A stretch of 47,402 nucleotides of DNA from Candidatus Magasanikiibacteriota bacterium (GCA_030650025.1 JAUSEN010000025.1:66601-114002); one strand, 5' to 3'. Numbered from the stretch's first letter, positions 5,922-37,296 are shown. Made by a program: numbers and translations. The notes: a model not told the origin generated them from the sequence alone.

Positions 5922-8180
5922 TTATTTTGTAACAGGCCATGGCTCTACCATAAGTAATTTTTCTTGGCCATAGAGTTCGCTCCAAATTGCTTCGGTCACG
6001 AAGGGCATAAAAGGATGAAGTAATTTAAGAACGTTGTTTAAAATATAATATAAATTTTGTATAGTAAAATTTTTAGATTCGCTATTCAGAAGTTGAGTTT
6101 TAGTCGCTTCGATATAAATATCAGCGAATTCATGCCAAGTAAAATCATAAAGCGACTGCGCGGCTTCGTGGAGACGAAAATTTTCTAAATTGTTTGTGAC
6201 CGCGATAATAGTGGCATTTAATTTTTCTAAAATGATTTGGTCGGCTGGAGTTTTGGCCTCGGGCACGGCGGTGGTGAGCGGTTCGCCGAGGGCGGCAATA
6301 TAGCGCGCGATGTTCCAGAGCTTATTAGCAAAGTGCTTCATGCCTTTGATTTTGTCTTCGGCTAAGGGGATGTCATTGCCGGCGGCGGTGGAAAAAATTA
6401 AGGCAAAACGCAGAGCGTCCGTGCCGTACATATCAATCACACCCAAGGGGTCGATGACATTGCCTTTGCTCTTGCTCATCTTCTGCCGGTCTTTATCGCG
6501 GACTAATCCGTGTAAAAATACTTTGGCAAACGGCGGCTTATTAGTGCGGTAGTACGAGAGCATGACCATGCGCGCGACCCAAAAAAATAAAATATCCCAC
6601 CCGGTTTCCATCACTTGAGTTGGAAAGTACGTAGCAAAATCATTGGCAGGCTGGCCAACCGCAGCTTTTTTAGCGTCGCTTGCCATTAAAGTTGCGTAGG
6701 GCCACTGACCAGAGGAGAACCAAGTATCAAACGTGTCAGGGTCGGCGATTACGCCGCCTCCACAACCAACGCAGGTATCAATTTTATTTTCGATATCAAC
6801 TACTGGTTGGCCGCAGGCTTGACTTTCGACTTTACCTGCCTGCCGGCGAGGCAGGGACTCTAGACTCTGCTTACAATATTTAACCGGGATCGGAATCCCC
6901 CACCAAATCTGCCGCGAAATCGGCCAATCGCGGATATTGGCCATCCAATGGCGAAATATTTTCTCAAATTTTTCCGTGACAATCTCAACTTCTTTAGTAT
7001 CGAGAGCCGCGACTGCCATGTCGCGCAAACTTGGCCGCTCTTGTTTGGTTTCATTATCCGTAAAACTAGCTGTCATTTTTATATACCACTGCGGCACAAT
7101 TTGCGGCTCGATTAAATTGCCGCATTTGTAGCACAGCTGAACATTGTGGGTATATTTGTCGTCAATGTGGTCCACCAGGCCTTTGGCGCGCAATTTCTCG
7201 ACGATCAAGGAGCGAGCATCCATAATTTTTTGGCCAACAAATTCGCCCGCGATGGGCAGGAGCTTGCCACGTTTGTCAATAACTTCCTCGATATCGAGTT
7301 TGCGCCTTTCGGCAATTTCAAAGTCCACGGCGTCGTGGGCCGGGGTAATGGTCATAACACCCGTGCCAAATTCCATATCCACGGCTTTGTCTTTGATAAT
7401 AGTCGCTACGGTCGGACCGTTGATCCATTCCAGATTTAATTTATCCCCTTCTTTATATTTTGCGTAGCGTTTATCGTCCGGGTGCATGACAACATATTTA
7501 TCACCAAACTTTGTTTCGGGGCGGCTGGTGCCAATCACAAACGGGCCATACTTAAAATAATAAAATTGCTCAATACGCTCTTCGTATTTGGTTTCTAAAT
7601 CCGCGAGGCCAGTCTGGTGCTTGGGGCACCAATTACAAATGCGGTTACCGCGGTAAATGAGGCCGTCAGCATGCATCTTTTTAAACGTTTCATAAACAAC
7701 TTTAACAATTTCCGGATCAAGTGAAAAAATGTTGCGGCTCCAATCGCAGGAGGCGCCGAGGCGCCTTATCCCCTGCTCGCTCAAGTGCTTATTCTCCTGC
7801 ACAAAATTCCAACACGCTTTATAGAATTCTTCGCGGGTCATTTTAAAGCGGCTGGTGCCTTCTTTTTCTAATTTTTTTTCAAACACGACTTGGGTCTCAA
7901 AACCAGCATGGTCTGTGCCCGGGAGCCAAAGCGCCCGGCGGCCACGCATCCGCGCAAAACGCGTTAAAATATCCTGGACTGTCAGGCCAAGCGCGTGGCC
8001 AACGTGAAGCGGGGCGTTGGCGTTAGGGAGTGGCAACATGATGGTGAAGGGCTCGCCAGGCAAACCTGCTTCAGCCGCAGGCAAGTTGTCGGGGTCGAAA
8101 AATCCGCTCGCTTCCCAGCGGGTGTAAATGGCGCTTTCGTAATCAGCGTGGTTGTAAGACTTTGGCAGGTCTTTGGACAT
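5922..8180 (-). CDS. valS: Valine--tRNA ligase (compact, lacks the C-terminal coiled coil)
   Basis: PNANAPLHVGH, GTDHAG, SRPET, ISRQIWWG, DTWFSS, KMSKS. Confidence 0.96.
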   Translation of the reverse strand: MSKDLPKSYNHADYESAIYTRWEASGFFDPDNLPAAEAGLPGEPFTIMLPLPNANAPLHVGHALGLTVQDILTRFARMRGRRALWLPGTDHAGFETQVVFEKKLEKEGTSRFKMTREEFYKACWNFVQENKHLSEQGIRRLGASCDWSRNIFSLDPEIVKVVYETFKKMHADGLIYRGNRICNWCPKHQTGLADLETKYEERIEQFYYFKYGPFVIGTSRPETKFGDKYVVMHPDDKRYAKYKEGDKLNLEWINGPTVATIIKDKAVDMEFGTGVMTITPAHDAVDFEIAERRKLDIEEVIDKRGKLLPIAGEFVGQKIMDARSLIVEKLRAKGLVDHIDDKYTHNVQLCYKCGNLIEPQIVPQWYIKMTASFTDNETKQERPSLRDMAVAALDTKEVEIVTEKFEKIFRHWMANIRDWPISRQIWWGIPIPVKYCKQSLESLPRRQAGKVESQACGQPVVDIENKIDTCVGCGGGVIADPDTFDTWFSSGQWPYATLMASDAKKAAVGQPANDFATYFPTQVMETGWDILFFWVARMVMLSYYRTNKPPFAKVFLHGLVRDKDRQKMSKSKGNVIDPLGVIDMYGTDALRFALIFSTAAGNDIPLAEDKIKGMKHFANKLWNIARYIAALGEPLTTAVPEAKTPADQIILEKLNATIIAVTNNLENFRLHEAAQSLYDFTWHEFADIYIEATKTQLLNSESKNFTIQNLYYILNNVLKLLHPFMPFVTEAIWSELYGQEKLLMVEPWPVTK
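6835..6855. repeat. CCTGCC-family palindrome, in frame within valS
   Basis: CCTGCCTGCCGGCGAGGCAGG (21 nt) flanked by GACT(T/C)TN heptamers. Confidence 0.8.
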
Positions 8181-8242
8181 AAACTACAGTTAATTTTACC
8201 AAATTAATCTGATTTCGGCAAGTTTAGGCTAATTTAAGCCAT

Positions 8243-8279
8243 GCCTGCCGCCTGCCTGCCGGTAGGCAGGGCAGACAGG
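8243..8279. repeat. Nested CCTGCC-family palindromes, intergenic
   Basis: CCTGCCTGCCGGTAGGCAGG (8251-8270) inside GCCTGCCG...GCAGACAGG. Confidence 0.8.
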
Positions 8280-8403
8280 AGAAAAAGCTATCCCCAGTAT
8301 GGCGTTTTACGCAGAGTTGACAGAAATTTTATGATTTGGTAGAATGAAGGGTTCTTGGAAAAAGGCTGATTTACGCCCAAACAAGAGCAATTTTGTTATT
8401 CCT

Positions 8404-23338: not shown

Positions 23339-23368
23339 AAAATAGGGGTAAAAAAAATAGTTATCCAC

Positions 23369-23406
23369 AGTCCTTCGCTCGCCTTATGCGAGCTTCGGAC
23401 TGCAAG
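23369..23406. repeat. CCTTCG...CTWCGG-family palindromic element, intergenic
   Basis: AGTCCTTCGCTCGC-cttat-GCGAGCTTCGGACTGCAAG; same layout as the dnaE inserts. Confidence 0.65.
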
Positions 23407-23744: not shown

Positions 23745-24890
23745 ATGCTCTTCAAACTCGTTCGGTTGCTCGGCATGCTCGCGCTGTACGGATTGGTGGT
23801 GTTCCAGGTCGGTTCGGCGGCCATCGGCCTTCTGAACCAGCCCAGGACCACGTCGGTCCTCGCGGGCGTGTTCCTGCTCGTCGGCATCGTCGGTTCGTTC
23901 ATCGCCATCGTCCCCGCCGTGCTCCGGTACGGCCAGAGCGCCTTCAAGGCGTACAAAAAGGAGATCGACATGACCCGCTTCAATTCGTTCCTGCTGTTCC
24001 TCGTGGCCACGAGCGTGCTCGGCACGAGTGGCTGCATCGGCTGCACTCGCATCGATGCCGGGCACGTCGGCATCGTGGTCAACCTCGCGGGCGACCAGCG
24101 CGGCGTGCAGGACCTGCCCACACAGACCGGCTGGGTGACGTACAACCCGATCGGCACCTCGGTGTTCGAGTACCCCACCTTCGTGCAGACGGCGGTGTGG
24201 ACCAAGAGCCTGACGGAGGGAAACCCCACCAACGAGGAGATCACGTTCACGAACGCGGACCAGATGCAGTTCGCGGCCGACATCTCGCTCGCCTACCAGC
24301 TCCAGCCGGAAAAAGTCCCCGCCTTCTACGTCAAGTTCCGCTCGGATGACCTCGCCAAGTTCACCCACGGCTTCCTCCGTAACCTCGCGCGCGAGAAGTT
24401 CGACAACGTCGGCGGCAAATACAAGACTGAGCAGATCATGGGCGACAACGCGCCCTTCCTCGCGGAAGTGCGCAAGGCGCTCCAGGACGAGCTCGACCCG
24501 ATCGGCGTGCACATCGAACAGTTCGGTTTTATCGGTGCACCCCGCCCGCCGCAGAACGTGATCGACTCGATCAACGCCAAGAACGCGGCCATGCAGAAGG
24601 CGATGCAGGTCGAGGGCGAACTGCGCCAGACCAAGGCTGAAGCCGAAAAGCATATCGCGGCGGCCGAAGGCCAGGCCAAGGCGGAAGTTGCCAAGGCCAA
24701 GGGTGACGCCGAAGCGCGGCGAATCAAGGCCGATGCCGAGGCCTATGCCAACCAGGTGGTGGCGCGTTCCATCACGCCACTGGTCATCGAGTACTGGCGT
24801 ACCCAGAAGTGGAACGGGCAGATGCCGCAGGTGACCAGTGGCAACAACTCTGGCCTTCTGTATCAGCTCCCGAGCCCCTCCAGCAAGTAA
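23745..24890 (+). CDS. SPFH/band 7/prohibitin-domain membrane protein, strongly GC-rich
   Basis: RIDAGHVGIVV, coiled-coil AEAE/AKGDAEA repeats, KWNGQMP; internal SD plus ATG at 23970. Confidence 0.9.
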   Translation: MLFKLVRLLGMLALYGLVVFQVGSAAIGLLNQPRTTSVLAGVFLLVGIVGSFIAIVPAVLRYGQSAFKAYKKEIDMTRFNSFLLFLVATSVLGTSGCIGCTRIDAGHVGIVVNLAGDQRGVQDLPTQTGWVTYNPIGTSVFEYPTFVQTAVWTKSLTEGNPTNEEITFTNADQMQFAADISLAYQLQPEKVPAFYVKFRSDDLAKFTHGFLRNLAREKFDNVGGKYKTEQIMGDNAPFLAEVRKALQDELDPIGVHIEQFGFIGAPRPPQNVIDSINAKNAAMQKAMQVEGELRQTKAEAEKHIAAAEGQAKAEVAKAKGDAEARRIKADAEAYANQVVARSITPLVIEYWRTQKWNGQMPQVTSGNNSGLLYQLPSPSSK

Positions 24891-25156
24891 CTCACCTATC
24901 CCCTAGCCTTGTCATCGGCTTCCAATAGATGCACTCGTGCGCCGGACACGTTCAAAATCCGGCACCTATCTGTGATTGCAATTAGAGATTACGGCCTTAA
25001 ATTTTAGGGCCAAAATAGGAGGCCGCTTCCTGCAGAGGCGGCCTTCCCAAAAAACACAAAAATTGTCCCCCTCGACAAAGGCTCGGGGCAATTTTTGGCT
25101 TTGCGATTTATCTAGAATAAGCTATAATAATCAAGCAAAAATAATTGCTTCAAATT

Positions 25157-27472
25157 ATGCGCGAACATAGCAGAATTGGGTGGCTAGGCAAAATGCTGGC
25201 AATATCCGCGGGCATGTTTTTGGCGGATAAAGCGCAGGCGGACAAACCCGAGAACCCGGACGTAAAAATTGAACATAAATTAACCGCGCCACCCCGACTA
25301 AGCCGGGGTGATATGCCAGCGATTGTGCCCAGTGAACTGGCTAACTTGGATGAGGCGCAAAGAAAATTGATGGCCGAGCAAGTTTTGGCGGCGCTCAAAA
25401 AAATTCTGGCTAGTACTGACCGCGGCCGGGTAGAAGCTTTAACAGAAGCGGAGAGAAGCCAAGTTTATAAACCAATTTTTGAAACCGGCCGGCTTAATGC
25501 GAATGCAATGAGGAATGCTCTGCTCCGAATGGCCCCTCTTTTAAACCCCGAACAAATAAAAAGTTTAGAATTACAACACGGCAAGCTAGCGGCGGAGCCT
25601 TTTAATACTCAAACGCCGAGTTACGCTGAAGTGGAGGCGTGGATAAAGGCGAGAAGCGCGACTGTAGCCGGGCGCAACGAGCTTTATACTCTGTATAGAA
25701 CACTGGAGAGTGCTTTACGCCAAAGCACACCTGCGGCGGGAGCCGAAGAGGCAGAACCAGCGCTCAAGACTGCGCCGGAACCGGAAACCGCACCAACGCC
25801 AGCCACAACAGAGGAGCCAACAGCAGAAACTCCGGCAACCGAACCAAACCAAATCAGACTAAACCCGGACGGAACTTATAATTTAGGCCAGGGAATGAAA
25901 TTGAAACTTGAACTACCGCGGTTTGATATTTCACCAGTGGTGCCGACCGCGCCCCAAGTGGAACCACCGGCCGAGGCAGCTCCCGAGGCAATTAAACCGG
26001 CGAAAAAGGTCAAAAAAATAGAGGCGCGGGAAGCACGGGTGCCTAACCCCAGCGAAGGAATGTTTCACTCGGCAGTGCGCAAACATACCGCGGACGGCCA
26101 GCCGGCTTTTTATTTTAGTTTTGATGACGGGCCGCACCCGAGCCAAACAAAAATAATTTTAGACGAATGCCTAAGGCAAGGCGTGAAAGCGACATTTTTT
26201 TTAACAGGCGAGAGTATTAGAACTTATGGAAGGCTGGGTTTAATAGAGCGCATGCGCGCTGAAGGGCACGCGATTGGCTTACATTCTGACAAGCACGCCG
26301 ATATGCGGGTGCAGGCTAAAAATATGACGCCAGAGCAAGCCTTTGCCGAAAATATTTTAAAACCCACCGCCGAACTGGCAAAACTCGGGATTGTCCCGGA
26401 CAAAATTTTTCGCCCGCCTTATGGTGAAATTACACCCGAACAATTTGCCTATTTTACCGCGCAAGGATACTACGTTGTGGGCTGGGACAATGACGCCGCG
26501 GAATATAAATTTCCGACCACGGAAAAAATTGTCAGGGTGATTACGGCCGGGGCGCGCCCTGGTTCGTTTACCCTCCTTCACGATGGCGGAGGCAAACACC
26601 CGAATACCGTGGCCGCCTTCCCGCAAATTGTTCGTGATTTACAAGCCCAAGGCTATAGCTTTGAGACTGTGCCGTTTGGCTTAAACCTTGCTAACGCCGG
26701 AGGCGCCGCGGCAGAGAGAGGAGAAGCCACGGATACTGTAACTGCGGCTACGGCAGTAGTGCCAGAAGCCGCGGAAAGCAGAGGTCGGGGTGAGAGAGCG
26801 GCAGTAGCGAGAGATGAGATAGATGAGACACCCGATGGCGGAGCGCGCGAATTGCCACCGGGCGCTTTTGGGCTCGACCAATGGGGCCAGCCGTATGCTT
26901 GGCCGATGATGGCGCATAAATTTTTAGAAAAAGATACTGATTTAGAAAAATTAGATTTATGCGAGCCGTTTGAGGGGCGCGACACTAGCGGTAAAACTAT
27001 AGCCGGGCTTAGGCTCACCAAAGAAGCCCGCCAAGCGATGCAGGCGCTCGAAGCGGAGTTTGCCGCTGAACAAAATCCGGAATTGCAAGCGATCGGCGGA
27101 ATTTTTGCAACCGAAGCCGGCCGCACTATTGCGTACCACAAAGGAAAATTATGGAAGGATTTAGTGGAGAGGTACGGCGAAGAAACAGCGCGGAAAGTAA
27201 CCGTGGAACCGGGATTTAGCGAGCATCACACTTTTAACGCCATAGATTTTAACCAAGCTAACCGCTTGGTGGTTTACAATTTCTTCATGAACCCGGAGAA
27301 GGCGTTACGTGATAAAAATTTTGTTCCCAGAATTATTCGCTTGGGTTTTATTCCCACCGCGCGCGGTGAACCATGGCACTGGCGTTTTGTTGGCACAGAA
27401 AAAGCCAAAGAATTTTACCAAAAATACCGCGTTGAAATTATTAAAACCCACACGAGGCTACTCCGTAAATAA
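25157..27472 (+). CDS. Secreted NodB-type polysaccharide deacetylase fused to a VanY/M15B D,D-carboxypeptidase domain
   Basis: Signal-like N terminus (AQA); FSFDDGP, ATFF, HSDKH, FRPPYG, LLHD; PGFSEHH...AIDF, EPWHWRFVG. Confidence 0.85.
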   Translation: MREHSRIGWLGKMLAISAGMFLADKAQADKPENPDVKIEHKLTAPPRLSRGDMPAIVPSELANLDEAQRKLMAEQVLAALKKILASTDRGRVEALTEAERSQVYKPIFETGRLNANAMRNALLRMAPLLNPEQIKSLELQHGKLAAEPFNTQTPSYAEVEAWIKARSATVAGRNELYTLYRTLESALRQSTPAAGAEEAEPALKTAPEPETAPTPATTEEPTAETPATEPNQIRLNPDGTYNLGQGMKLKLELPRFDISPVVPTAPQVEPPAEAAPEAIKPAKKVKKIEAREARVPNPSEGMFHSAVRKHTADGQPAFYFSFDDGPHPSQTKIILDECLRQGVKATFFLTGESIRTYGRLGLIERMRAEGHAIGLHSDKHADMRVQAKNMTPEQAFAENILKPTAELAKLGIVPDKIFRPPYGEITPEQFAYFTAQGYYVVGWDNDAAEYKFPTTEKIVRVITAGARPGSFTLLHDGGGKHPNTVAAFPQIVRDLQAQGYSFETVPFGLNLANAGGAAAERGEATDTVTAATAVVPEAAESRGRGERAAVARDEIDETPDGGARELPPGAFGLDQWGQPYAWPMMAHKFLEKDTDLEKLDLCEPFEGRDTSGKTIAGLRLTKEARQAMQALEAEFAAEQNPELQAIGGIFATEAGRTIAYHKGKLWKDLVERYGEETARKVTVEPGFSEHHTFNAIDFNQANRLVVYNFFMNPEKALRDKNFVPRIIRLGFIPTARGEPWHWRFVGTEKAKEFYQKYRVEIIKTHTRLLRK

Positions 27473-27505
27473 TGGGCTTTGGCTATGCCTCGCCGGCAGG
27501 CTGGC

Positions 27506-27534: not shown

Positions 27535-27555
27535 TAAAGCGGTTTTTTGTTTTTA

Positions 27556-27629
27556 GTCAGGGTAGCTCAGCTGGTTAGAGCACGGCATTCATAACGCCGA
27601 GGTCGAGGGTTCGACCCCCTCCCCTGACA
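27556..27629 (+). tRNA. tRNA with CAT anticodon (elongator Met or Ile2), CCA not encoded
   Basis: GTCAGGG/CCCTGAC acceptor, TAGCTCAGCTGGTTAGAGC D arm, TTCATAA loop, GGTTCGACCC T arm. Confidence 0.93.
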
Positions 27630-27800
27630 CATGGGTTAGAAGTTTTTTGTTAACGACCAAAATTTACGAGTTCGCACGAAGTAAATTTTGAGTCAGTTAA
27701 CAATCCGCCTCTGGCGGATGCGAATTCGGGACTGGGGATTTGAACGCTACACGTTTAGATCCCCCGGCCTGAATTTTACCGACCCGGGGAGGAGGACACA

Positions 27801-28333: not shown

Positions 28334-29557
28334 ATGCTAATCCTCGGGATCGAATCTTCTTGCGATGACACGTCCGTGGCTCTCCTGGAATGCTCGGAGC
28401 AGGGCCACACGATTTTGGCGCATAAAACCGCGTCGCAAATTGATATTCATAAAAAATATGGCGGCGTGGTGCCTGAAGTAGCGGGCCGATTACACGCCGA
28501 AGCGATAGTGCCGCTTATCGAAGAGGTGCTAGACCACCCCCCCGCCCGCATTGCTACGCAAAGCGTTGCGGGCGGGCCCACCCCCTCCTTGAAAGGAGGG
28601 GGAATGCGAACGAAACCAGATGCGATTGCGGTAACGAGCGGGCCTGGACTAATAACTGGTTTGATTGTAGGAGTGGAAGCGGCGCGGACGCTAGCGGCGG
28701 CGTGGAATATTCCTCTTATCGCCGTAAACCATATTGAAGGGCATATTCATAGCGTGGAGCTTGGGCAGTACCCACCTGTCATCTTGAGCGAAGCGAAAGA
28801 TCTAAGTGATTCGAAACGCTTAGATTCTTCGGCTACGCCTCAGAATGACAATAGCAAACCAATTACTAAATTTCCCGCGCTGGCGTTGGTAGTTTCGGGC
28901 GGCCATACCGAATTAGTTTTAATGCGTGACCACGGTGATTACGAAATCTTAGGAAAAACGCGCGATGACGCGGCTGGGGAATGCTTTGATAAAGTGGCCA
29001 AACTCCTTGGCCTCCCCTACCCGGGCGGCCCAGAGATAAGCCGGCTGGGAGAGAATGCCGCAGCCGACGCAATCCATTTTCCGCGGCCCATGCTGAAGGA
29101 TAAAAACTACGACTTCAGTTTTGCCGGCCTTAAAACCTCGGCTTTATACTACTTACGCGATCATAAACTTGCCGCCATGCATATAAACCCGGTGCAAATG
29201 CCCGCTGGTATTTTGGGACAAATGCCAGAAGAGCCTACTATTAACGACTTTTGCGCCAGCGTGGAGCAGGCGATTGTCGACGTCCTAGTTGGAAAGACAA
29301 TGCGAGCAGTGGCCGCGTATAAACCGCAAACAGTTTTATTAGTGGGAGGCGTGGCGGCCAACCAGAAACTCCGAGAAACTTTACGCTCGGAAATCGCTCG
29401 CCTACTCCCTACCCCCTACTTCCTACTCCCTTCGCTCAAACACTGCATGGATAACGGCGCTATGATCGCGGCCGCCGGATTTTGGAAAGCGCGGAACCAA
29501 GAATTTACACCTTGGCAGGAACTCAAGGCGAATCCAAACTTAGCCATTGCCGAATAA
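28334..29557 (+). CDS. tsaD: tRNA N6-adenosine threonylcarbamoyltransferase TsaD
   Basis: ILGIESSCDDT, GGVVPEVA, NHIEGH, VSGGHT, DDAAGECFDK, DNGAMIA. Confidence 0.97.
   Translation: MLILGIESSCDDTSVALLECSEQGHTILAHKTASQIDIHKKYGGVVPEVAGRLHAEAIVPLIEEVLDHPPARIATQSVAGGPTPSLKGGGMRTKPDAIAVTSGPGLITGLIVGVEAARTLAAAWNIPLIAVNHIEGHIHSVELGQYPPVILSEAKDLSDSKRLDSSATPQNDNSKPITKFPALALVVSGGHTELVLMRDHGDYEILGKTRDDAAGECFDKVAKLLGLPYPGGPEISRLGENAAADAIHFPRPMLKDKNYDFSFAGLKTSALYYLRDHKLAAMHINPVQMPAGILGQMPEEPTINDFCASVEQAIVDVLVGKTMRAVAAYKPQTVLLVGGVAANQKLRETLRSEIARLLPTPYFLLPSLKHCMDNGAMIAAAGFWKARNQEFTPWQELKANPNLAIAE
28533..28602. repeat. Nested palindromic insert in tsaD
   Basis: CCCGCCCGCA..TGCGGGCGGG hairpin followed by CCCCCTCCTT-ga-AAGGAGGGGG. 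Confidence 0.75.
28777..28850. mobile_element. TGTCAT...ATGACA MITE-like element, in frame within tsaD
   Basis: TGTCATCTTGAGCGAAGCGAAAGATCT...AGATTCTTCGGCTACGCCTCAGAATGACA (VILSEAKDL...DSSATPQND). Confidence 0.8.
29401..29428 (+). repeat. Heptamer tandem repeat (CCTACYY x4) in tsaD
   Basis: CCTACTC CCTACCC CCTACTT CCTACTC. Confidence 0.75.
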
Positions 29558-29558
29558 A

Positions 29559-32500
29559 CTAGATAACGACGGCGCGATTTAAAACCTGGCTTAAGGCCGC
29601 GGCCATATCGGGAGGCGTGCTAATTTTATAACTCGTCTTAATTTTTTTACTGCCGACTGACACATACAAATCCTGATTGCCGGGGTGAGAGCTAAAAATT
29701 TTTTTTAATTCTTCGGCATGCGTTTTCATCTCGCCGGCAGTAAGCTTAATAACCACGGCATTTTTTGGAATGGCCTCAATTTTGCCAAAACTAGCCGGCA
29801 CAAATTGCCGGATAGAGGCCTGGCCTAGGCTTAAAGTACTTTTTAAATCCACAATATTACTCGCGTTTAAACGGTAAGCTTTTTCCACAAATAACTTATC
29901 GTCGCCTTCTTCGGCGCTGGTTTTGCCGACCACACAGACGTTTTCTCCCACTTGCCACACGTCTTTAGTGGCTTCGAGAGTACGCGGGAAAACTAATAAC
30001 TCCAAGCTACCGGAGATATCTTGAATCGTAACAAACATCATCGCCTCGCCTTTTCTGGTAATTTTCTTTTTCAAACTGTCCACCACGCCGCCGACCACAA
30101 CCCAAGTATTGCGCGGCTCCCCGCCAAGTTCGGAAACAGACGTTAAAACTTCGCCTAATTTTTCCTGAAAATCTTTAAACGGATGGGCGGTAACATAAAG
30201 CCCAAGCAATTCTTTTTCCCAATGTAACTTGTCATCTTCAGTGGCATTGGGAGCGGGGTTTAAACGCACTGTGCCGGCCGCGTCCAAGCTACTGCCGCTA
30301 AAAAGAGAGTCCTGGCGCACGGCCGTGTGATTGTTTTTAGCGCGTAAAAAATCCAACATATTCTCGACATTGGCCAAAAGCAAACCCCGATCGTGGCCAA
30401 GGCTGTCGAGCGCGCCGCATTTAATTAAACTTTCTAAGGATTTTTTGTTCAAGTCTTTGTCTTGAACGCGGGTCAAGAAATCCTCTAGATTTTTATAAGA
30501 GCCGCCGGCTTTGCGCGTGCGGTAGATAACATCCGCGATATGCTCGCCCAAGTTTTTGATGCCATTTAAGCCGAAGCGGATGTGCTCGTCCTTCGTCCCG
30601 ATTTGAGTCGGGACTACGGACGACAAGGCCTCATTTAGTGAAGCAATTAACTTGCCCTGCGAAGCTTGCCCAGAAGCAAGCGAAGCATGGGCCATCGCAA
30701 AACTTTTAAAACTTTGGTTGATATCGGGAGGCAAAACTTTTATACCCAGGCGCTCACACTCGTGAATAATGGGCGGAACTTTGTCGATATCACCACTCTC
30801 CGCGATCAAAACCGCAGTCATGTACTGAATCGGAAAATTGGCTTTCATAAAGGCGGTTTGATAAGCCACCACGCCATAGCTCGCCGCGTGCGCCTTGTTA
30901 AACCCATAGGCCGCGAACGGTTCGATGCGCTCCCAGAGCAAATTAATTTTAGCTTCCCCCAGTTTGCCAAATTCGCGGCAACCTTTAAAAAACTTTTCTT
31001 TTTGTTTACTCATTTCCGCGGGAATTTTTTTACCCATGGCTTTGCGAAATTTGTCGGCTTCTTCCCAATTATAGCCAGCTAAATTTATGGCTGTTAACAA
31101 AACGTCATCTTGATAAACAATCAGGCCGAGTGACTGGTCCAAATAATCCTTCATGCGCGGGTCAAGATACTCTACTAATTCGGGGTGTAATTTGCGGCGA
31201 ATATACTCGGGTATGGACTCCATTGGCCCGGGCCGGAACAACGCCACCATGGCCATAATATCAAAAATACTGCTTGGTTTAAGTTCTTTTAAATACCGAG
31301 TCATACCACTGCTGGAAAGTTGGAAGACACCGACAGTTTCTCCCCGGGCTAGCATTTCGTAGGTTTTGGCATCGTCCCAGGGATAGAGATTATGAATATC
31401 CACGCGCTTCCCAGTGGTTTTCTCCACAATTTCCACCGCATGCCCCAAGATAGACAGGTTGCGAATGCCTAAAAAATCCATTTTTAAAAGACCGGCCGCT
31501 TCCACGGCATGCATTTCGTATTGAGTAATCATTTTGCCGCCATCGGTTTCGTACTGCACGGGAGTAAAATCAGTCAGGGGCGTTGGGGAAATCACCACGC
31601 CCGCCGCGTGCACGGAAGTGTGGCGCGCGCAACCTTCGATTTTTTGCGCTAAATTAAGAAGTTTTTCCACTTGCGGATTTTTGGCGTATAATTTTTTTAG
31701 TTCTGGCTCCAAATCCAGGGCTTTTTTGATGGTAATTTGAAAACCCTGCGCGCCAAAGGGAATCAGCTTGGCTACCTGGTCGCAAAATCCGTAGCTGTAC
31801 CCAAGAGCCCGGCCACAGTCGCGCACGGCCGCCCGAGCCGCCATGGTTCCAAAAGTAATAATTTGGGCGACTTTATCGGCACCATATTTTTTCGTGACAT
31901 AGGCAATCATCTCGTCGCGGCGATCGTCGGCAAAATCGGCATCCACATCAGGGGGTGATGGCCGGTGCACTGTGAGAAAACGCTCAAAAGGAAGCTTAAA
32001 ATAAAGCGGGTTAACATTGGTAATGCCGAGCGCGTAGGAAACAATAGACCCGGCGGCCGAGCCGCGCGTAGTTTCGATAATGCCATGGTCCCGAGCATAC
32101 AAAACATAATCAGACACCACCAAAAAATAAGGCGAATAGCCTTTCTTAATAATGATAGAAAGTTCATACTCCACTCGTTCTTGGACAGCGTCAGTAACTT
32201 CTAGTAGACTCGGCAAACGCCGATACACTTCGGCGCGCAAGAATTCATCGGCCGTATACCCAGTAGGAATATCAATGGCCGCGAAGTGCCATTCGTTAAG
32301 TTTTAATTCCAAATTAACCTGCTCGGCAATTTTGACAGTATTGGCGATAGCCTCCGGCAGATGTTTAAAGCGGCTCGCGACTTCTTGGCCGGAACACAGC
32401 GAATAATCCACCCCCACCATAGTAGGGCGGTTGGGCTCTTCCACCACGCGGCCAGCGCTAATACAGGTTAAAACATCTTGAGCTTCAGCATCCTCATCTT

Positions 32501-33137
32501 CTAAATAGTGGGTATCGCGTGTCACCACCAGGGGTAGGCCGGTAGTTTTACCGAGCGCAACCAAGGCGGCGTTGACTTCGATTTGGCCGGGCAGGGCGGG
32601 CAGATCGTTTAGTTCCAAATAAAAATTTCCCTCACCAAAAATTTCAGCATACTCCAGGGCTACGCTCTCCGCCTTTTTTAAATTATTTTCTTTGTGAATA
32701 GCATTGGCCACCTCGCCATTGATACAGCCCGAGAGCCCAATTAAACCAGCGCTGTGCTCTTGGAGCATAGCGCGGCTCAAAAGTGGCTTATCGCGCCGGC
32801 CAATAGTCTGCGCCAACGAAACCAATTGGAGAAGATTTTTGTAGCCCACATAATTTTTGGCTAAAACCACCAATTCAAACGAACGGAAAGCGCGGATATT
32901 TGGAGCATTTAAGTCGTCTAAAGTAACATAAAGCTCGGCGCCAATAATGGGCTTGATCCCCTCTTTTTTGCAGGCTTCATAAAATTCAATCGCGCCATAC
33001 AAATTAGCGTGATCAGTAAGCGCGAGAGTTTTGAAACCCTTAGACTTGGCAGCCTTAACAAGCTCGTTAATTTTGGGAACAGCGTCAAGTAGCGAATAAT
33101 GCGAGTGAACATGGAGGTGAACAAAGTCATTAGACAT
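29559..33137 (-). CDS. dnaE: DNA polymerase III alpha subunit
   Basis: HLHVHSHYSLLD PHP domain, RGSAAGS, PDVDAD, KMDFLG, YGFNKAHA, OB fold. Confidence 0.98.
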   Translation of the reverse strand: MSNDFVHLHVHSHYSLLDAVPKINELVKAAKSKGFKTLALTDHANLYGAIEFYEACKKEGIKPIIGAELYVTLDDLNAPNIRAFRSFELVVLAKNYVGYKNLLQLVSLAQTIGRRDKPLLSRAMLQEHSAGLIGLSGCINGEVANAIHKENNLKKAESVALEYAEIFGEGNFYLELNDLPALPGQIEVNAALVALGKTTGLPLVVTRDTHYLEDEDAEAQDVLTCISAGRVVEEPNRPTMVGVDYSLCSGQEVASRFKHLPEAIANTVKIAEQVNLELKLNEWHFAAIDIPTGYTADEFLRAEVYRRLPSLLEVTDAVQERVEYELSIIIKKGYSPYFLVVSDYVLYARDHGIIETTRGSAAGSIVSYALGITNVNPLYFKLPFERFLTVHRPSPPDVDADFADDRRDEMIAYVTKKYGADKVAQIITFGTMAARAAVRDCGRALGYSYGFCDQVAKLIPFGAQGFQITIKKALDLEPELKKLYAKNPQVEKLLNLAQKIEGCARHTSVHAAGVVISPTPLTDFTPVQYETDGGKMITQYEMHAVEAAGLLKMDFLGIRNLSILGHAVEIVEKTTGKRVDIHNLYPWDDAKTYEMLARGETVGVFQLSSSGMTRYLKELKPSSIFDIMAMVALFRPGPMESIPEYIRRKLHPELVEYLDPRMKDYLDQSLGLIVYQDDVLLTAINLAGYNWEEADKFRKAMGKKIPAEMSKQKEKFFKGCREFGKLGEAKINLLWERIEPFAAYGFNKAHAASYGVVAYQTAFMKANFPIQYMTAVLIAESGDIDKVPPIIHECERLGIKVLPPDINQSFKSFAMAHASLASGQASQGKLIASLNEALSSVVPTQIGTKDEHIRFGLNGIKNLGEHIADVIYRTRKAGGSYKNLEDFLTRVQDKDLNKKSLESLIKCGALDSLGHDRGLLLANVENMLDFLRAKNNHTAVRQDSLFSGSSLDAAGTVRLNPAPNATEDDKLHWEKELLGLYVTAHPFKDFQEKLGEVLTSVSELGGEPRNTWVVVGGVVDSLKKKITRKGEAMMFVTIQDISGSLELLVFPRTLEATKDVWQVGENVCVVGKTSAEEGDDKLFVEKAYRLNASNIVDLKSTLSLGQASIRQFVPASFGKIEAIPKNAVVIKLTAGEMKTHAEELKKIFSSHPGNQDLYVSVGSKKIKTSYKISTPPDMAAALSQVLNRAVVI
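30585..30691. repeat. Pair of oppositely oriented palindromic elements, in frame within dnaE
   Basis: CGTCCTTCGTCCCGA..TCGGGACTACGGACGACAAG and CTTGCCCTGCGAAGCTTGC..GCAAGCGAAGCATGGG. Confidence 0.7.
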
Positions 33138-33187
33138 ACTAACCGCATTTTACAAGATAACGACAACAAAATCAACCCTAAAAAAAC

Positions 33188-33217
33188 GTAGGGACCCAGC
33201 CGAGGCGGGGTCCCTAC
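33188..33217. repeat. GTAG-type REP-like palindrome, possibly a terminator
   Basis: GTAGGGACCC-agccgaggcg-GGGTCCCTAC. Confidence 0.7.
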
Positions 33218-33239
33218 AAATAATTTTTTTAATTTTATT

Positions 33240-33629
33240 TTATTTTTTTATCTTCCGAGCCGCTGTTCTCATTTTGCTGGCAGTGGCGGCCACGGCCTTC
33301 TCGACCGCGCTTTTGGCTGAACTGTTAAAACTTCCCGTGGCGCCATCGAGCCAGTGGTCGGCTTTTCTGGTGACAACTTTCTTGACCAAACTGCCAACGC
33401 CGCTCGTGGCCATGGTGAGAAAATCCGAGATATGTTCCACCTTGCCGCGGATGAAATTAATGGTTTCGGTGAGCATTTGAATCTTCACGCGAAACTCTTC
33501 CACAATTTGGCTCGCGCTCCGGAGCAATTTCATAACATAGTAGAACGTCCAACACAGAAAGATGGTTACCCAGAGCACACAAAAACTAATGACGATATAT
33601 AAAATGTCCCGAGAATTTTCTACAAACAT
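33240..33629 (-). CDS. Membrane-anchored hypothetical protein
   Basis: N-terminal TM helix followed by amphipathic helices. Confidence 0.75.
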   Translation of the reverse strand: MFVENSRDILYIVISFCVLWVTIFLCWTFYYVMKLLRSASQIVEEFRVKIQMLTETINFIRGKVEHISDFLTMATSGVGSLVKKVVTRKADHWLDGATGSFNSSAKSAVEKAVAATASKMRTAARKIKK

Positions 33630-33731
33630 ACCCCTCCTAAATTAAATAATTTAAACTAGTTCGATGTTTTTTATTATAGCACAAAATTAATCAGTTGCCA
33701 ATTTTGCACTCTGCCAAGCAATAATTTTAAT

Positions 33732-36239
33732 TTACCTAATTTCCGCGCCAAATTTTTGTTTAAGCAGATGCTCGGCTTTTTTTACAGCCCCCCCAATCTC
33801 ATTGGCCGCTAGTGTTTTGGCTTGGCTTTCCAGAGTAACGTGATAAGCCAGGCTTTTATAGCCGTGGTTTAATTTACTACCGCTATAAACATCAAATAAT
33901 TCCACGGCCGTGATTAACGGATCGGCATTTTTAAGTAGAGACACAATTTGAGCGTGGGTAATTTCTTGTTTTACAATAAAAGCGAGATCGCGAGTAACTG
34001 CGGGAAAGGGGTTCAGCGGCTTGTAAACAAGAGCTTTTTGAGTCTCAAGAATCAGAGTATCAACCACCGAAAGATTGAGCGCGAAAATAGCCGCGCGGCT
34101 TTCGAGCCCAAGAGCGGCCGCCACAGCGGGGTGGAATTCAAACACCGTGCCAACGACTGTGTTGTCTGTACCAAGGGTCAGCCAGCTGGAGCGCGTGGGG
34201 TGCATCCAAGGGTGGAGGGGTTTAGTTTCGGCCGGAGCATAGCGCCACGGCAAACGCAAGACACTGGACGCGGCCTCGGCCGCGCGTTTCGCTTCCCAAA
34301 ACGGCTCTTCGTTTTTCTTCTCCACAAAAATACTGGTCATTTCTACATCTTGCCGCGGTAATAGATCGCTGCCGCTCGCGGCGGCTCTGACCCCCGGCTC
34401 TTCGGCAATATAGACTTTGCCGATTTCGAACATCTTCAGCTTCTCTGCGAACTCTATATTCTTTACAACATTCTCAAGTAAATTCAAAACAACGTGCCGA
34501 CGCAAAAACGGCTTTTCTTTAGAAAGGGGGTTGTCGAGTTCTAAATACAGGTTCGGATCATCGCCGAGCGCCTCAATTTGGGCACGGCTCACGAACGAAT
34601 AATTATCAGTTTCCGTGTAACCTAAAGTGCCGGCTAGAACAGCGCGTACGGTATTCTCTAAAACGCGCAAAGTATCGGGGAGGGGCAGGGCGCCAGAGCG
34701 CGGCGGCAAAAGACTCGGGATTTTGTCATAACCAAAAATTCGGACAACTTCTTCGACAATGTCTTCGGCGATAGCGATATCTTTGGTGGCGCGCCACGAA
34801 GGAATTCTGACGGATAATTCTTTTTTACCTGCTTTAATAGTAAAGCCAAGATGCTCTAAAATTTTTATAGCCTCGTTAAGGGGGACATCAAACCCCAATT
34901 TTTGGATAAATAAATTTTTGGGAATATTAATGGGCCCGGTCGGCAACCGCGGTTTCCCTAGGCTTACCACTTTACTCGCCACTTTAGCGCCCGGGCAAAG
35001 CTCCAGGGTGAGCGCGACGGCCCGCGCCAGCGAAACTTCGCATAAATTAGGGTCTAAGCTCTTTTCAAAACGAGCCGAGGAATCAGAACGTACTCCGAGG
35101 CGCGTGGATGTCTTACGAATGCTGGCCGCGTCAAAAATCGCGGTTTCAAAAACAATTGTCGTGGTATCATTATTTATCCCGCTCCCCTCTCCACCCATAA
35201 TGCCAGCTAGCGACAGGGCGCGGTCGTGGTTCGCGATAACGCCGTATTCGGGCGAGAGTTTAATTTTTGTGCCATCAAGTAGAACCAGCTCCTCACCGTC
35301 TTTGGCAAACCTAACATTTATTTCTAGGCTATTTTTATTACCCTGCCTACCGGCAGGCAGGAATTCTAAACTCCGCGCATCAAACGCGTGCAAGGGTTTG
35401 CCAAGCTCAAACATTAGCAAATTAGTAATATCAACAATGTTGTTAATCGGTTTTTGGCCAACCGCGAGTAATTTTCTCTGAAGCCACTCGGGGGAAGGGC
35501 CAACTTTTATTCCGGACACGGCCACAAACATTATTTTGGGGCAAAATATCTCACTCTCGACATTTAATTTTATCTTCACGTCCTTACCCTCTTGGATCAC
35601 GGCTGTTTTGTATTCTTTAATATCGCGATTATAAAGCGCGGCCACTTCGCGCGCGAGACCGTAGTGCCCCCACAAATCTGGCCGATTGGAAAGAGACTTG
35701 TTGTCGATTTCTAAAATTGAATCATTTAAACCAAGAACATTCGATAGTGGTGTTCCTGGTTGTAGGGAACGCATATATGCGTTCCCTACCGAAGTACCAA
35801 CATCCAAAATTTCTTTATCATCCTTTTTAGGAAACATTGAACCAAGGCCGATTTCTTCGGCCGCGCAGATCATGCCCTGCGACTCCACGCCACGAATGAT
35901 GGCTTTCTCGAGCACGACTGGCTCGCCCTGCCCATGCCACACCACGCTGGCGCCGATCGGCGCCACCGCGACCCACTGCCCTGGCGCCACATTGCTACCG
36001 CCACAAACGATGGAAAGCTTGGCACCAACATCAACTTCACAAATTTTAAGTTTGTCGGCATTAGGGTGCCGGGCACACTCAATAATTTTGCCGATAATAA
36101 TTTTATCAAGACTCCGGCCTTGGCGCTCCACCTTTTCTACTTCTACCGTGCTCTGTTTTAATTTTTCGGCAACTTCCTCGGCAGTAACCGAATCGGGAAG
36201 ATCGACGAACTGTTTGAGCCAATTGAAAGAAATTAACAT
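33732..36239 (-). CDS. pheT: Phenylalanine--tRNA ligase beta subunit
   Basis: HPNADKL, NRPDL, PINNIVDITN, PLHAFD, EEVVRIFGYD, RDLAF, LFDVY. Confidence 0.97.
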   Translation of the reverse strand: MLISFNWLKQFVDLPDSVTAEEVAEKLKQSTVEVEKVERQGRSLDKIIIGKIIECARHPNADKLKICEVDVGAKLSIVCGGSNVAPGQWVAVAPIGASVVWHGQGEPVVLEKAIIRGVESQGMICAAEEIGLGSMFPKKDDKEILDVGTSVGNAYMRSLQPGTPLSNVLGLNDSILEIDNKSLSNRPDLWGHYGLAREVAALYNRDIKEYKTAVIQEGKDVKIKLNVESEIFCPKIMFVAVSGIKVGPSPEWLQRKLLAVGQKPINNIVDITNLLMFELGKPLHAFDARSLEFLPAGRQGNKNSLEINVRFAKDGEELVLLDGTKIKLSPEYGVIANHDRALSLAGIMGGEGSGINNDTTTIVFETAIFDAASIRKTSTRLGVRSDSSARFEKSLDPNLCEVSLARAVALTLELCPGAKVASKVVSLGKPRLPTGPINIPKNLFIQKLGFDVPLNEAIKILEHLGFTIKAGKKELSVRIPSWRATKDIAIAEDIVEEVVRIFGYDKIPSLLPPRSGALPLPDTLRVLENTVRAVLAGTLGYTETDNYSFVSRAQIEALGDDPNLYLELDNPLSKEKPFLRRHVVLNLLENVVKNIEFAEKLKMFEIGKVYIAEEPGVRAAASGSDLLPRQDVEMTSIFVEKKNEEPFWEAKRAAEAASSVLRLPWRYAPAETKPLHPWMHPTRSSWLTLGTDNTVVGTVFEFHPAVAAALGLESRAAIFALNLSVVDTLILETQKALVYKPLNPFPAVTRDLAFIVKQEITHAQIVSLLKNADPLITAVELFDVYSGSKLNHGYKSLAYHVTLESQAKTLAANEIGGAVKKAEHLLKQKFGAEIR
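35342..35361. repeat. CCTGCC-family palindrome, in frame within pheT (LPAGRQG)
   Basis: Exact reverse complement of 8251-8270. Confidence 0.85.
35762..35789. repeat. GTAG-type perfect palindrome, in frame within pheT (VGNAYMRSL)
   Basis: GTAGGGAACGCATATATGCGTTCCCTAC. Confidence 0.85.
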
Positions 36240-36243
36240 AGTG

Positions 36244-37296
36244 CTAAAACTGCTCTAAAAATTTAATATTTCCGCTCTCGAGTAGGCGGACGTCCTCGAT
36301 GCCGTATTTGAGCATGACTAAACGCGAGAGCCCGAGGCCAAAAGCAAAACCCTGATATTTAGCCGGGTCAACCCCACCGGCCTTAAGAACATTCGGGTGC
36401 GTCATGCCAGCGCCAAAAATTTCGAGCCAGCCAGAGTTTTTACAAACCCGGCAACCCCGGCCCTTACACAAAAAACAGGTCACTTCGCCGCGCACGCCTG
36501 GCTCCACAAATGGGTAAAACTTCGGTGAAAAACGCATTTTAACTTCGGGGCCGTACAGATGCTTGGCAACGGCTTCTAAAATGCCTTTCAAATGCGCGAA
36601 GGTAATATCGGTGTCGTACATAAAACCTTCGATCTGATATAAGGTGTGCTCGTGGCGAGCGTCAGTGGATTCGTTCCGAAAGCATTTGCCGGGCACGATG
36701 GCCGCGAGCGGCGCGCCGTATTTCTGAAGCGCCCGCACCTGCATGGGGCTCGTATGCGTGCGCATTAGCCAGCCTGCTCCAGCCGGAGCGGCTGGGTCGT
36801 GGCCCTTGATGTAGAATGTGTCCATAATATCGCGCGCCGGGTGGTCGGCGGCGAAATTGAGAGCGCTAAAGTTATAGTAATCACTCTCGAGCTCGGGGCC
36901 GTCTAAAACCATAAACCCGAGCTTGGCAAAAAAATCTTCTAAGTCGCGCCCTACTTGAGTAATGGGGTGAAGATGCCCGGGATCTAAATGGGGTAGGGCT
37001 GGCTCCGTAATATCTAGCCGCTCACCCGCGGCCGCGTTCTCCCAAGCGCTAGCGCTTAACTCGCGGTGGCGCGCGGCCACAGCTGATTCTAAAATAATTT
37101 TAACTTCGTTAGCGAGCGGCCCGATTTCTTTTTTCACTTCTGCCGCCAAATCTTTTAGGCTTTTTAAAATATTGGTGAGTTCACCGTTTTTGCGGCCGAG
37201 CAATTTAATTTCTAAATTGGCTAATTCTAATTTGTCTTTAGCCGCTTTAATGGCCAAAAGCCCTTCGGTTTTGAGTTGTTGTAAATCTATGGTCAT
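36244..37296 (-). CDS. pheS: Phenylalanine--tRNA ligase alpha subunit
   Basis: GHLHPI, HPARD, RTHTSP, YPFVEP, GFAFGLGLSRL. Confidence 0.97.
   Translation of the reverse strand: MTIDLQQLKTEGLLAIKAAKDKLELANLEIKLLGRKNGELTNILKSLKDLAAEVKKEIGPLANEVKIILESAVAARHRELSASAWENAAAGERLDITEPALPHLDPGHLHPITQVGRDLEDFFAKLGFMVLDGPELESDYYNFSALNFAADHPARDIMDTFYIKGHDPAAPAGAGWLMRTHTSPMQVRALQKYGAPLAAIVPGKCFRNESTDARHEHTLYQIEGFMYDTDITFAHLKGILEAVAKHLYGPEVKMRFSPKFYPFVEPGVRGEVTCFLCKGRGCRVCKNSGWLEIFGAGMTHPNVLKAGGVDPAKYQGFAFGLGLSRLVMLKYGIEDVRLLESGNIKFLEQF

Follow-up and report, generated by a model that had tools for sequence, protein, structure and literature searches.

How several families of short palindromic repeats came to lie in frame inside essential genes is the question raised by a 47,402-nt stretch of DNA (the window; G000:C16:66601-114002) from a tiny groundwater bacterium, a member of Candidatus Magasanikiibacteriota. 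The assembly holding the window (G000, the genome under study; other G and L labels denote related genomes and loci, and C labels contigs) comprised 1.03 Mb in 29 contigs, and its completeness was rated 100%. The original prediction for this DNA was that at least four repeat families occur both between genes and inside valS, secA, tsaD, dnaE and pheT, forming an active, often nested system that adds peptide loops to core proteins. Genome-wide pattern and copy searches confirmed that there were several distinct palindromic families, both intergenic and in frame within core genes. We consider it probable that the window belongs to a genome-wide colonization by short palindromes of the repetitive extragenic palindrome (REP) class, which are filtered in genes, read as protein loops and, in the case of the families tagged with GTAG, moved by enzymes resembling REP-associated tyrosine transposases (RAYTs).

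The identities of the host open reading frames (ORFs) as ValRS, SecA, TsaD, DnaE and PheT were backed by Pfam or NCBIfam, and a translation check placed all in-gene copies in these five genes within uninterrupted ORFs. Thirteen of the 15 sites listed in the original prediction were borne out, and the other two, valS 8065 and dnaE 30654, failed as family members (Table 1).

Table 1. Palindromic repeats, their host genes and RAYT-like transposase genes. Positions are those of the window unless a contig is named; fold z compares hairpin folding with that of shuffled sequences.
Feature	Position	Strand	Basis
GTAG palindrome variant overlapping annotated argS 5' end (argS 2735-4498, -)	4489..4516		sequence, copies; argS by Pfam
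valS (valine-tRNA ligase, 752 aa), host gene	5922..8180	-	NCBIfam NF004349, Pfam tRNA-synt_1 and Anticodon_1
CCTGCC..GGCAGG palindrome inside valS, read as SLPRRQAG (aa 442-449)	6835..6855		pattern match, translation
Claimed second valS element, not a repeat	8065..8085		single genome copy, fold z -0.14
Intergenic extended CCTGCC palindrome, between valS and divergent ORF 8344-9543	8240..8280		pattern match (8251), copies
secA (977 aa), host gene	14510..17443	-	Pfam SecA_DEAD (two stretches), P-loop_SecA, SecA_SW, SecA_PP_bind, SEC-C
TGTC-tagged dimer (TGTCAT..ATGACA, 77 nt) in secA, read as SVIPTSQEESSHQLQTDRDSRLRGNDN	16831..16907		fold z -3.89, translation
Intergenic TGTCAT..ATGACA composite, just 3' of nrdD (19901-21745, -)	19779..19893		sequence, copies; nrdD by Pfam
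Intergenic member of GTCCTTCG..CTTCGGAC group	23370..23400		motif search, fold z -4.99
Short CCTGCC-like core, 3' of ORF 25145-27472, ahead of tRNA-Met	27487..27501		copy search
tsaD (407 aa), host gene, three inserted segments	28334..29557	+	Pfam TsaD in three stretches; alignment
Two adjacent GC-rich hairpins in tsaD (CCCGCCCGC.. and CCCCCTCC..GGAGGGGG unit), read as ..ARIATQSVAGGPTPSLKGGG..	28541..28602		fold z -7.06
TGTC-tagged dimer (74 nt) in tsaD, read as PVILSEAKDLSDSKRLDSSATPQNDN	28777..28850		fold z -3.84, translation
Third tsaD insert (..MHINPVQMPAGILGQMPEE..), no repeat family found	29156..29221		single genome locus
dnaE (1192 aa), host gene	29559..33137	-	Pfam PHP, DNA_pol3_alpha, finger, HHH_6, OB fold
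GTCCTTCG..CTACGGAC nested hairpin in dnaE	30588..30621		motif search, fold z -3.72
Second dnaE hairpin, unique in genome	30654..30692		fold z -2.76
Intergenic GTAGGG..CCCTAC hairpin upstream of dnaE	33188..33217 (C16 99788-99817)		pattern match
pheT (phenylalanyl-tRNA synthetase, PheRS, beta chain, 835 aa), host gene	33732..36239	-	Pfam B3_4, tRNA_synthFbeta, FDX-ACB, tRNA_bind, B5
CCTGCC..GGCAGG palindrome in pheT, read as FLPAGRQG (aa 293-300)	35342..35361		pattern match, translation
GTAGGG..CCCTAC perfect palindrome, 28 nt, in pheT, read as VGNAYMRSLQ (aa 151-160)	35762..35789		copies
Single arm of TGTCAT family, intergenic	43346..43370		inverted-repeat pair with 19775-19799
RAYT-like Y1 transposase ORF	C8:111105-111677	-	Pfam Y1_Tnp 26.9 bits, NCBIfam 63.7 bits
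RAYT-like Y1 transposase ORF	C19:89536-90120	+	Pfam Y1_Tnp 32.6 bits, NCBIfam 58.8 bits
RAYT-like Y1 transposase ORF	C19:71280-71923	+	Pfam Y1_Tnp 29.6 bits, NCBIfam 59.4 bits

A genome-wide census of perfect hairpins (stem of at least 9, loop of at most 12) yielded 898 raw and 350 merged hairpins against 49-55 in three shuffles, an excess of approximately 17-fold; the motifs were repeated across the genome, with the families far above shuffles. Copies were located on an ORF map of 1025 ORFs, and the in-gene counts use the 748 ORFs of at least 150 aa (long ORFs), which covered a fraction of 0.836 of the genome. GTAGGG..CCCTAC was present in 34 copies, compared with 0-3 in shuffles, and 16 of them lay in long ORFs. 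The corresponding numbers were 9 copies and 2 in long ORFs for GTAGAGAC..GTCTCTAC, 17 (0-2 in five shuffles) and 10 for CCTGCC..GGCAGG, 33 and 31 for CCCYCYCC..GGRGRGGG, 41 and 10 for TGTCAT..ATGACA after removal of five chance matches, and 19 and 1 for the CCATGAACC-type hairpins. The first five families together contributed 69 copies within 44 of the 748 long ORFs. CCCYCYCC copies were read in all three phases, giving the unrelated peptides PLLCKGGG, PSPLRRGG and PPSIAMEG, and GTAG copies were read in two phases; the repeated entity was therefore the DNA and not the peptide. The in-gene share rose with the number of stop-free frames, as a simple survival filter predicts: CCCYCYCC had four to six of six frames free of stop codons in every copy (all six in 20/33), CCTGCC five or six, GTAGGG at most four, and TGTCAT zero to four.

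The GTAG palindromes at pheT 35762, 4489 and 33188 were confirmed as repeats by their ends or copies. The 28-mer in pheT was found, identical, at eight genome loci, and the variant at 4489 was one of nine loci, whereas site 33188 had GTAGGG and CCCTAC ends around an interior unique in the genome. All 34 GTAGGG..CCCTAC copies and the nine GTAGAGAC..GTCTCTAC copies began with GTAG, the terminal tag by which GTAG-tagged REPs are recognized, and most were perfect palindromes with a stem of 13-15 bp and a loop of 0-1 nt, at or beyond the published range. The predominantly extragenic position of such REPs was not seen here on the crude ORF map, because besides the 16 GTAGGG copies wholly within long ORFs, six more overlapped ORF ends. 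The two commonest GTAG 28-mers, with eight copies each, had unrelated flanks, and neither was among the matches in 30 relatives. Flank dinucleotides of the GTAG copies were weakly non-random. The original prediction had also proposed a CCTTCG..CTWCGG family represented twice in dnaE, and this proved to be small but real: the motif GTCCTTCG..CWWCGGAC had four genome matches, including dnaE 30588 and intergenic 23370, against 0-1 in ten shuffles, and site 23370 had one copy, 89% identical, on C7. On the other (minus) strand the group of dnaE 30588 reads as GTCC-GTAG-stem, and it was therefore assigned to the GTAG type rather than to a separate kind. The dnaE hairpin at 30654 was real, as 0/200 shuffles folded as well, but without a second copy in the genome it was no member.

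For the CCTGCC..GGCAGG family, the pattern search of the window returned three loci (6835 in valS, 8251 between genes and 35342 in pheT) against 0.02 expected, which bore out these sites. The palindrome at 8240-8280 had a 39-nt copy of 95% identity on C11, and parts of it were common to 13 loci. Site 27487 retained only a core of 15-16 nt, with an exact 16-nt match to just two other copies; the tRNA-Met following it lies at 27556-27630. The second valS site proposed, 8065, was not borne out: there was neither a pattern match nor a second genome copy, 83 of 200 shuffles folded as well, and in the alignment this region was an N-terminal stretch variable in indels among relatives. A 14-mer match at 9167 in ORF 8344-9543 was likewise rejected as a chance match. 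ValRS itself scored 795.8 bits against NF004349 (cut-off 704). It is a short form covering profile positions 2-697 of 860, and similarly short enzymes were found in only three of 26 aligned relatives (G014, G025 and G024; 704-737 aa), most relatives having a ValRS of 860-950 aa with only 40-46% identity to that of G000. The short ValRS may represent a different valS lineage or a replacement.

The TGTCAT..ATGACA sites were recurrent at secA 16831, tsaD 28777 and intergenic 19779, and the partial site near 43350 was a single arm. A strict short-gap pattern gave no match because the elements are 74-115 nt long, and a loose pattern gave 2-12 matches in shuffles. Five of its 15 in-ORF matches (C4 27285, C11 480, C16 72971, C19 37416 and C19 101812) were dropped by eye as chance matches with no repeat peptide signature. 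Pieces of the elements recurred in the genome at 16 loci for secA 16831, 25 for tsaD 28777 and five for 19779, and the arm at 43350 had 15-nt matches at four other loci. Taken whole, the composite at 19779 had no folding advantage over shuffles (z -0.23). In secA, the left unit was TGTC-ATTCCCGC-GTAA-GCGGGAAT, that is, a TGTC tag, an 8-bp stem starting A-T and a 4-nt loop, as in CGTC/TGTC-tagged REPs. The unit in tsaD fitted less well, with a 5-bp ATCTT/AAGAT stem around a GCGAAGC core. In secA, tsaD and 19779 the layout was that of a dimer with TGTCAT and ATGACA at the outer ends, and the tail was CTC or CTA, not CCA. The two adjacent hairpins at tsaD 28541-28602 had not been listed before; the first of them recurred at four other loci, adjoining CCCYCYCC pairs. 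With these hairpins, and with a homologous TGTCAT element carrying an extra inner hairpin at the second tsaD site of G013, which is a true nested case, clustering or nesting of elements was seen to occur. As a separate observation, summed contig depth from two groundwater runs was approximately 10-20 times that of neighboring bins at the TGTCAT elements (16501-17167 and 28507-29173); many contigs matched only there, and TGTCAT arms are seemingly common in other community members.

Orthologues were taken from 30 genomes (18 of the same family and 12 of the same order) and aligned gene by gene. The peptides encoded by the repeats were missing from all or nearly all of these relatives in the secA, pheT, valS, dnaE and tsaD alignments, as expected of lineage-specific insertions; apart from valS 8065 and dnaE 30654, there was neither broad sharing of the peptides among orthologues nor a motif confined to one place in the genome. 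Such in-frame insertion in conserved genes, with absence from orthologues, is a feature of Rickettsia palindromic elements (RPEs). The SLPRRQAG segment of ValRS was missing from the nearest orthologue, L092 (77% identity), and was found in 0/26 aligned relatives. The VGNAYMRSLQ peptide of PheT was found in 0/28, and the LPAGRQG position was gapped in most of the same 28. The segment of approximately 38 residues containing the SecA element was gapped in 28/28 relatives covering it. The dnaE 30588 hairpin lay within an insert of about 33 aa absent from about 24 of 29 relatives; the G000 segment itself was found in 0/29, and the HHH_6 match extended over 120 residues for 87 profile positions. In TsaD, site 1 (28541-28602) had 7-8 residues in 18/26 relatives vs 31 in G000, site 2 (28777-28850) at most 21 in 23/27 vs 41, and site 3 (29156-29221) 15-20 in 20/27 vs 33. 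The site 3 insert (aa 275-296, ..PVQMPAGILGQ..) had a similar form in G001 and G002 (..LPAGIFGQ..) and matched no G000 repeat family; it may be an old, decayed element.

Judging from the alignments, the same loops in tsaD, dnaE and pheT are occupied by different elements in other genera. At tsaD site 3, L003, L008, L010 and L018 had different TGTCAT-type elements; L122, L128, L134 and L149 carried other inserts at the same point of the helix-hairpin-helix (HhH) domain of DnaE; L068 had an RRQAG-type insert at the LPAGRQG position of PheT; and L062 and L071 had RLRGND-type fragments at the pheT GTAG site. AlphaFold2 modeling placed the inserts in low-confidence loops of confident cores, in agreement with the suggestion that they occupy surface loops. 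The TsaD model (27-row alignment) had a mean predicted local distance difference test score (pLDDT) of 87.1 and a predicted template modeling score (pTM) of 0.86, and pLDDT fell below 50 only at aa 75-89, 153-155, 159-164, 166-174 and 287-290, coinciding exactly with the three inserts. For PheT, the model (28 rows; mean pLDDT 88.2) had minima at both elements: the block of aa 151-160 averaged 66 vs 80-86 in its flanks, and aa 296-299 were below 50. Two further low-pLDDT segments (512-517 and 735-741) were not elements. The cores of both proteins are thus predicted to be intact, with the inserts as poorly ordered loops.

The original prediction stated that no mobilizing enzyme is present in the window, and this was true; elsewhere in the genome, however, there are genes for three RAYT-like Y1 transposases, all associated with GTAG repeats. 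An initial conclusion that the genome had no transposase, from a six-frame scan with Y1_Tnp (PF01797, cut-off 23 bits) that gave 0 matches, was a false negative, explained by repeats inside the RAYT-like ORFs that split the domain match. Two of the genes were found by Pfam on ORFs bracketed by GTAG pairs, and the third, a paralogue, by tblastn. The proteins had 191, 194 and 214 aa, and the best NCBIfam family for all three was 'REP-associated tyrosine transposase' (NF047646; E 1.6e-17 to 5.4e-16). The MPNH(V/I)HxII motif and the C-terminal Y-I-x-x-N-P were invariant in the three proteins, giving the HUH motif and the catalytic tyrosine of this enzyme class. A cognate GTAG repeat lay 27-52 nt upstream of each gene, and the stretch of ORF separating the HUH and Tyr motifs contained one or two more; ahead of C19:71280-71923 there was also a tandem array of half-repeats (L299:190-272). 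G011 and G013 had this layout too, with other GTAG sequences, and a deltaproteobacterial locus showed ..PNHMHGIIEIADGRGTMHRAPT... The association of repeat and RAYT gene (a REPtron) was thus present in G000, G011 and G013. RAYT-type genes of G013 and G004 were missed by PF01797 and found with an alignment of the three G000 proteins; because the scan gives false negatives, PF01797 tallies in relatives (9/31) and in a phylum sample (138/301) are lower bounds. All genomes with RAYT-type genes (G000, G001, G004, G011 and G013) had at least one GTAGGG palindrome, and 20 of 25 other relatives had none, a correlation among related and not independent genomes that leaves aside G030 (only a weak 29-aa RAYT-type match and no palindrome). 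A RAYT-like enzyme encoded elsewhere in the genome probably moves some of the repeats.

No comparable enzyme was identified for the TGTC, CCTGCC and CCCYCYCC families in genome scans for TnpB (PF07282), DDE_Tnp_1 and rve, each with 0 matches, for Phage_integrase, with one, and for GIY-YIG. GIY-YIG had 11 matches, eight of which were small free-standing genes of 89-125 aa, and no GIY-YIG gene in G000 adjoined GTAG, CCTGCC, CCCYCYCC or TGTCAT copies. IS200-type genes of the relatives G014, G015, G021 and G027 had no matching repeats around them. One GIY-YIG gene (C14:52790-52999, within C14:52613-53067) was bracketed by identical 51-nt double hairpins of the intergenic CCATGAACC family.

Cross-genome counts gave 32 GTAGGG..CCCTAC loci in G000 vs 0-6 in the 30 relatives, and 25 CCCYCYCC loci vs 0-4. 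These copy numbers, far above those of relatives, indicated that the expansion was lineage-specific. In five orthologous neighborhoods, GC-rich perfect hairpins were densest in G000 and G001 (3.1 per 10 kb), followed by G013 and G014, and 12 of the 30 relatives had none; this comparison is biased because the regions were chosen for their G000 elements. Hairpins with GTAGGGGC..GCCCCTAC ends were cosmopolitan, occurring at no fewer than 120 loci with many different palindromic interiors, and the phyla among the matches listed were Cyanobacteria, Chloroflexota, Acidobacteriota, Bacteroidota, Firmicutes, Desulfobacterota, Patescibacteria and others. When ten host ORFs of these hairpins were searched with Pfam, two had the hairpin in frame within a domain (Maf and AAA_17), two had it upstream of a domain, one had a weak Y1_Tnp match ending at the locus end, and five had no family.

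From these results we propose the following account. The window would be part of a genome-wide colonization by at least five sequence families of REP-class repeats: perfect palindromes tagged with GTAG (GTAGGG..CCCTAC, GTAGAGAC..GTCTCTAC and GTCC-GTAG-stem), head-to-head dimers with a TGTC tag, resembling the CGTC/RPE-4/6 type, and two untagged GC-rich palindrome families, CCTGCC..GGCAGG and CCCYCYCC..GGRGRGGG. The results show that copies arriving in genes persist only where the frame is kept, no stop codon is introduced and a surface loop is tolerant, and that such copies, read through as the frame predicts, add 7-30 poorly ordered residues. What follows is inferred: with time the inserts would decay until they are ordinary loop sequence peculiar to a lineage, and the GTAG families would be moved in trans by the three HUH tyrosine transposases of RAYT-like kind, whose genes each bear a GTAG repeat of their own.

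Elements of this kind are known from other bacteria. Nunvar 2010, Bertels & Rainey 2011 and Messing 2012 are said to treat GTAG-tagged REPs and REPINs with RAYT (TnpA_REP) transposases. RPE-1 of Rickettsia, reportedly described by Ogata et al. 2000 (cited in PMC3733652), is said to be a single family of approximately 100-150 nt in an intracellular alphaproteobacterium. It resembles the G000 repeats in behavior, being selfish palindromic DNA in frame in many essential genes, translated, with function kept; G000 differs in having at least five short families, some of them linked to RAYT-like genes. GTAG- and CGTC/TGTC-tagged REPs were defined, and the former tied to RAYT genes, by Di Nocera, De Gregorio & Rocco 2013 (PMC3733652). 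According to that paper, most REPs are intergenic, and intragenic ones occur in several species, among other places in dnaE and in genes for tRNA synthetases; they are most numerous in Opitutus terrae and Rickettsia conorii (RPE-4/6). The GTAG REPs it describes share with those of G000 a terminal GTAG, a GC-rich stem-loop, sub-families whose stems differ by compensatory changes, several families per genome, each adjoining its own Y1 (HUH) transposase gene, and some copies in genes, including aminoacyl-tRNA synthetase genes and dnaE. The G000 palindromes differ in having GTAG paired with CTAC in a symmetric unit of 27-29 nt with a stem of up to 14-15 bp and a loop of 0-1 nt, whereas the published tag is unpaired at one end and Table 1 of that paper gives a stem of 5-13 bp and a loop of 2-20 nt. 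They also differ in that 16/34 GTAGGG copies lie in long ORFs, and in that the transposase ORF itself contains the cognate repeat, placed after the HUH motif and before the Tyr motif, whereas PMC3733652 describes only flanking or gene-end-overlapping repeats. The TGTC units are alike in layout to the CGTC/TGTC REPs of that paper (RPE-4/RPE-6 of R. conorii and dRS3 of Neisseria), with a TGTC tag, an 8-bp stem, a 4-nt loop, an apparent head-to-head dimer arrangement, in-frame copies coding 20-30 residues and no known linked transposase; they differ in their CTC tail instead of the usual CCA, in a degenerate second unit and in the pairing of TGTCAT with ATGACA across the whole dimer. The host, a genome of approximately 1 Mb from the candidate phyla radiation (CPR), belongs to a phylum outside that survey. 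A literature search found no paper on REP-like repeats in CPR genes. The G000 case is of a known kind, from which it differs in five respects: it concerns another host phylum, its GTAG..CTAC palindromes are symmetric, it differs in how many families coexist, a very high share of its copies is intragenic, and a repeat is embedded in the RAYT ORF.

Several points weigh against the proposed account. The GTAG units, at 27-29 nt, do not consist of whole codons, a difficulty for maintenance of the frame, and complementarity of their flanks was weak (12/34 vs approximately 25% expected). The RAYT-like proteins scored 59-64 bits, below the equivalog cut-off of 80 bits for NF047646, the embedded repeats breaking up their matches; when one of the proteins was used to search PDB sequences, no RAYT structure or relevant match was returned; and the two most abundant GTAG sub-families differ from those carried by the RAYT-like genes. 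The ORF map behind the in-gene counts is crude, the nearest relatives are too diverged (55-77% protein identity) for defining insert boundaries, and translation of the inserts is predicted from the reading frame alone. Contigs of three runs, one of them probably the source sample and the only data set found to contain this DNA (no RNA data set was found), showed no empty site, polymorphism or target duplication at the elements, and the contigs of the probable source sample simply broke at repeats. Ongoing activity is suggested, indirectly, by the identical copies and lineage-specific copy numbers.

Among other explanations, the one that survived best, which we still regard as rather unlikely, is that the untagged and TGTC families are not transposed and arise or spread in some other way: through template switching at hairpins, through gene conversion or short-patch recombination with other copies, or through uptake of DNA from neighboring organisms. 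The scans described above found no dedicated enzyme, the only hit for TnpB, DDE_Tnp_1, rve or integrase being a single integrase-family gene, and PMC3733652 likewise links no transposase to CGTC repeats. Many other contigs in the two groundwater runs matched only at element positions (413 and 210 records, most of them aligned only in part), and the GTAGGGGC..GCCCCTAC hairpins are spread over many phyla, both of which favor exchange without transposition. However, the copies have unrelated flanks and uniform ends, as insertion of a defined unit gives, CCCYCYCC has grown to 25 copies in one lineage, and no donor or recombination tract was identified.

Retention of the hairpins for a role in DNA or RNA, such as pausing of transcription or translation, mRNA stabilization, host-factor binding sites or uptake signals, with the protein loops as a by-product, we judge improbable. 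The cosmopolitan GTAG hairpins did vary in their interiors with palindromy kept (many different perfect 28-mers), the related CCATGAACC.. family was almost purely intergenic, and PMC3733652 argues that many REPs act as RNA elements. Against this, the host genes and positions were unrelated and not conserved among relatives, copy numbers differed 5- to 30-fold between sister genera, and the coexistence of several unrelated families is a misfit with a single uptake signal. Selection for the repeated peptides as protein motifs, for example as linkers or as tags for interaction, would account for their recurrence in many proteins, but it is very improbable given that the same DNA in two or three phases and both orientations yields unrelated peptides, that about half of the copies are intergenic and that the segments are predicted to be disordered. 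Least credible of all is an artefact of assembly or binning that mis-joined repeats into the genes of a metagenome-assembled genome, because, although contigs of run X1 ended at repeats (19847-19873, 28544-28573, 28803-28822 and 35761-35789), single X1 contigs with 0 differences spanned the secA element (16649-19873), both dnaE hairpins (28822-31046) and pheT 35342 (31017-35789), in a run that may be the source sample and is thus not independent, the frames stay open with conserved domains on both sides, and relatives assembled elsewhere carry analogous inserts.

Within the account of REP-class colonization, because the kind of element is already known, interest lies in its density, host and layout rather than in a new principle. 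Small and densely packed with genes, the genomes of CPR/Patescibacteria are regarded as streamlined, yet G000 tolerates dozens of hairpins in genes including those for aminoacyl-tRNA synthetases, SecA, TsaD and the replicative polymerase. Colonization of this kind would explain many lineage-specific 'insertions' in CPR proteins, and such inserts would inflate apparent protein divergence, split domain matches and break short-read assemblies. They would also serve as a natural experiment to learn where essential enzymes have loops that tolerate an additional 7-30 residues, and three compact RAYT-hairpin pairs are on offer for studies of REP recognition. More speculatively, and with doubts of our own, the undepleted presence of CCCYCYCC in genes (31/33 copies vs 84% of the genome), the recolonization of loops across genera and the self-marking RAYT could be read jointly as 'coding-adapted' palindromic repeats. 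If so, ultra-small genomes with almost no intergenic space would owe many of their new protein loops to hairpin repeats as a main source, and RAYT-like genes with their own target hairpin at a conserved ORF position would be self-marking or autoregulatory REPtrons.

Other features of the window were observed in passing. At positions 14478-14500 and 47364-47397 the intergenic CCCCGCACCACAAGGGTGCGGGG-type hairpin was present in one copy, together with a repeat whose sequence starts CATATG. The stretch 24001-26000 had a G+C fraction of 0.563 vs approximately 0.47 elsewhere, and took in ORFs that overlap one another at 23.7-24.9 kb as well as the beginning of an ORF of 775 aa in which Pfam found polysaccharide deacetylase and VanY domains. 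At 10510-12591 (- strand), a SecD-like protein of 693 aa had a PPIC-type peptidyl-prolyl isomerase domain at aa 257-365, which sits between the first P1 segment and the P1 head subdomain of SecD, an unusual fusion or insertion.

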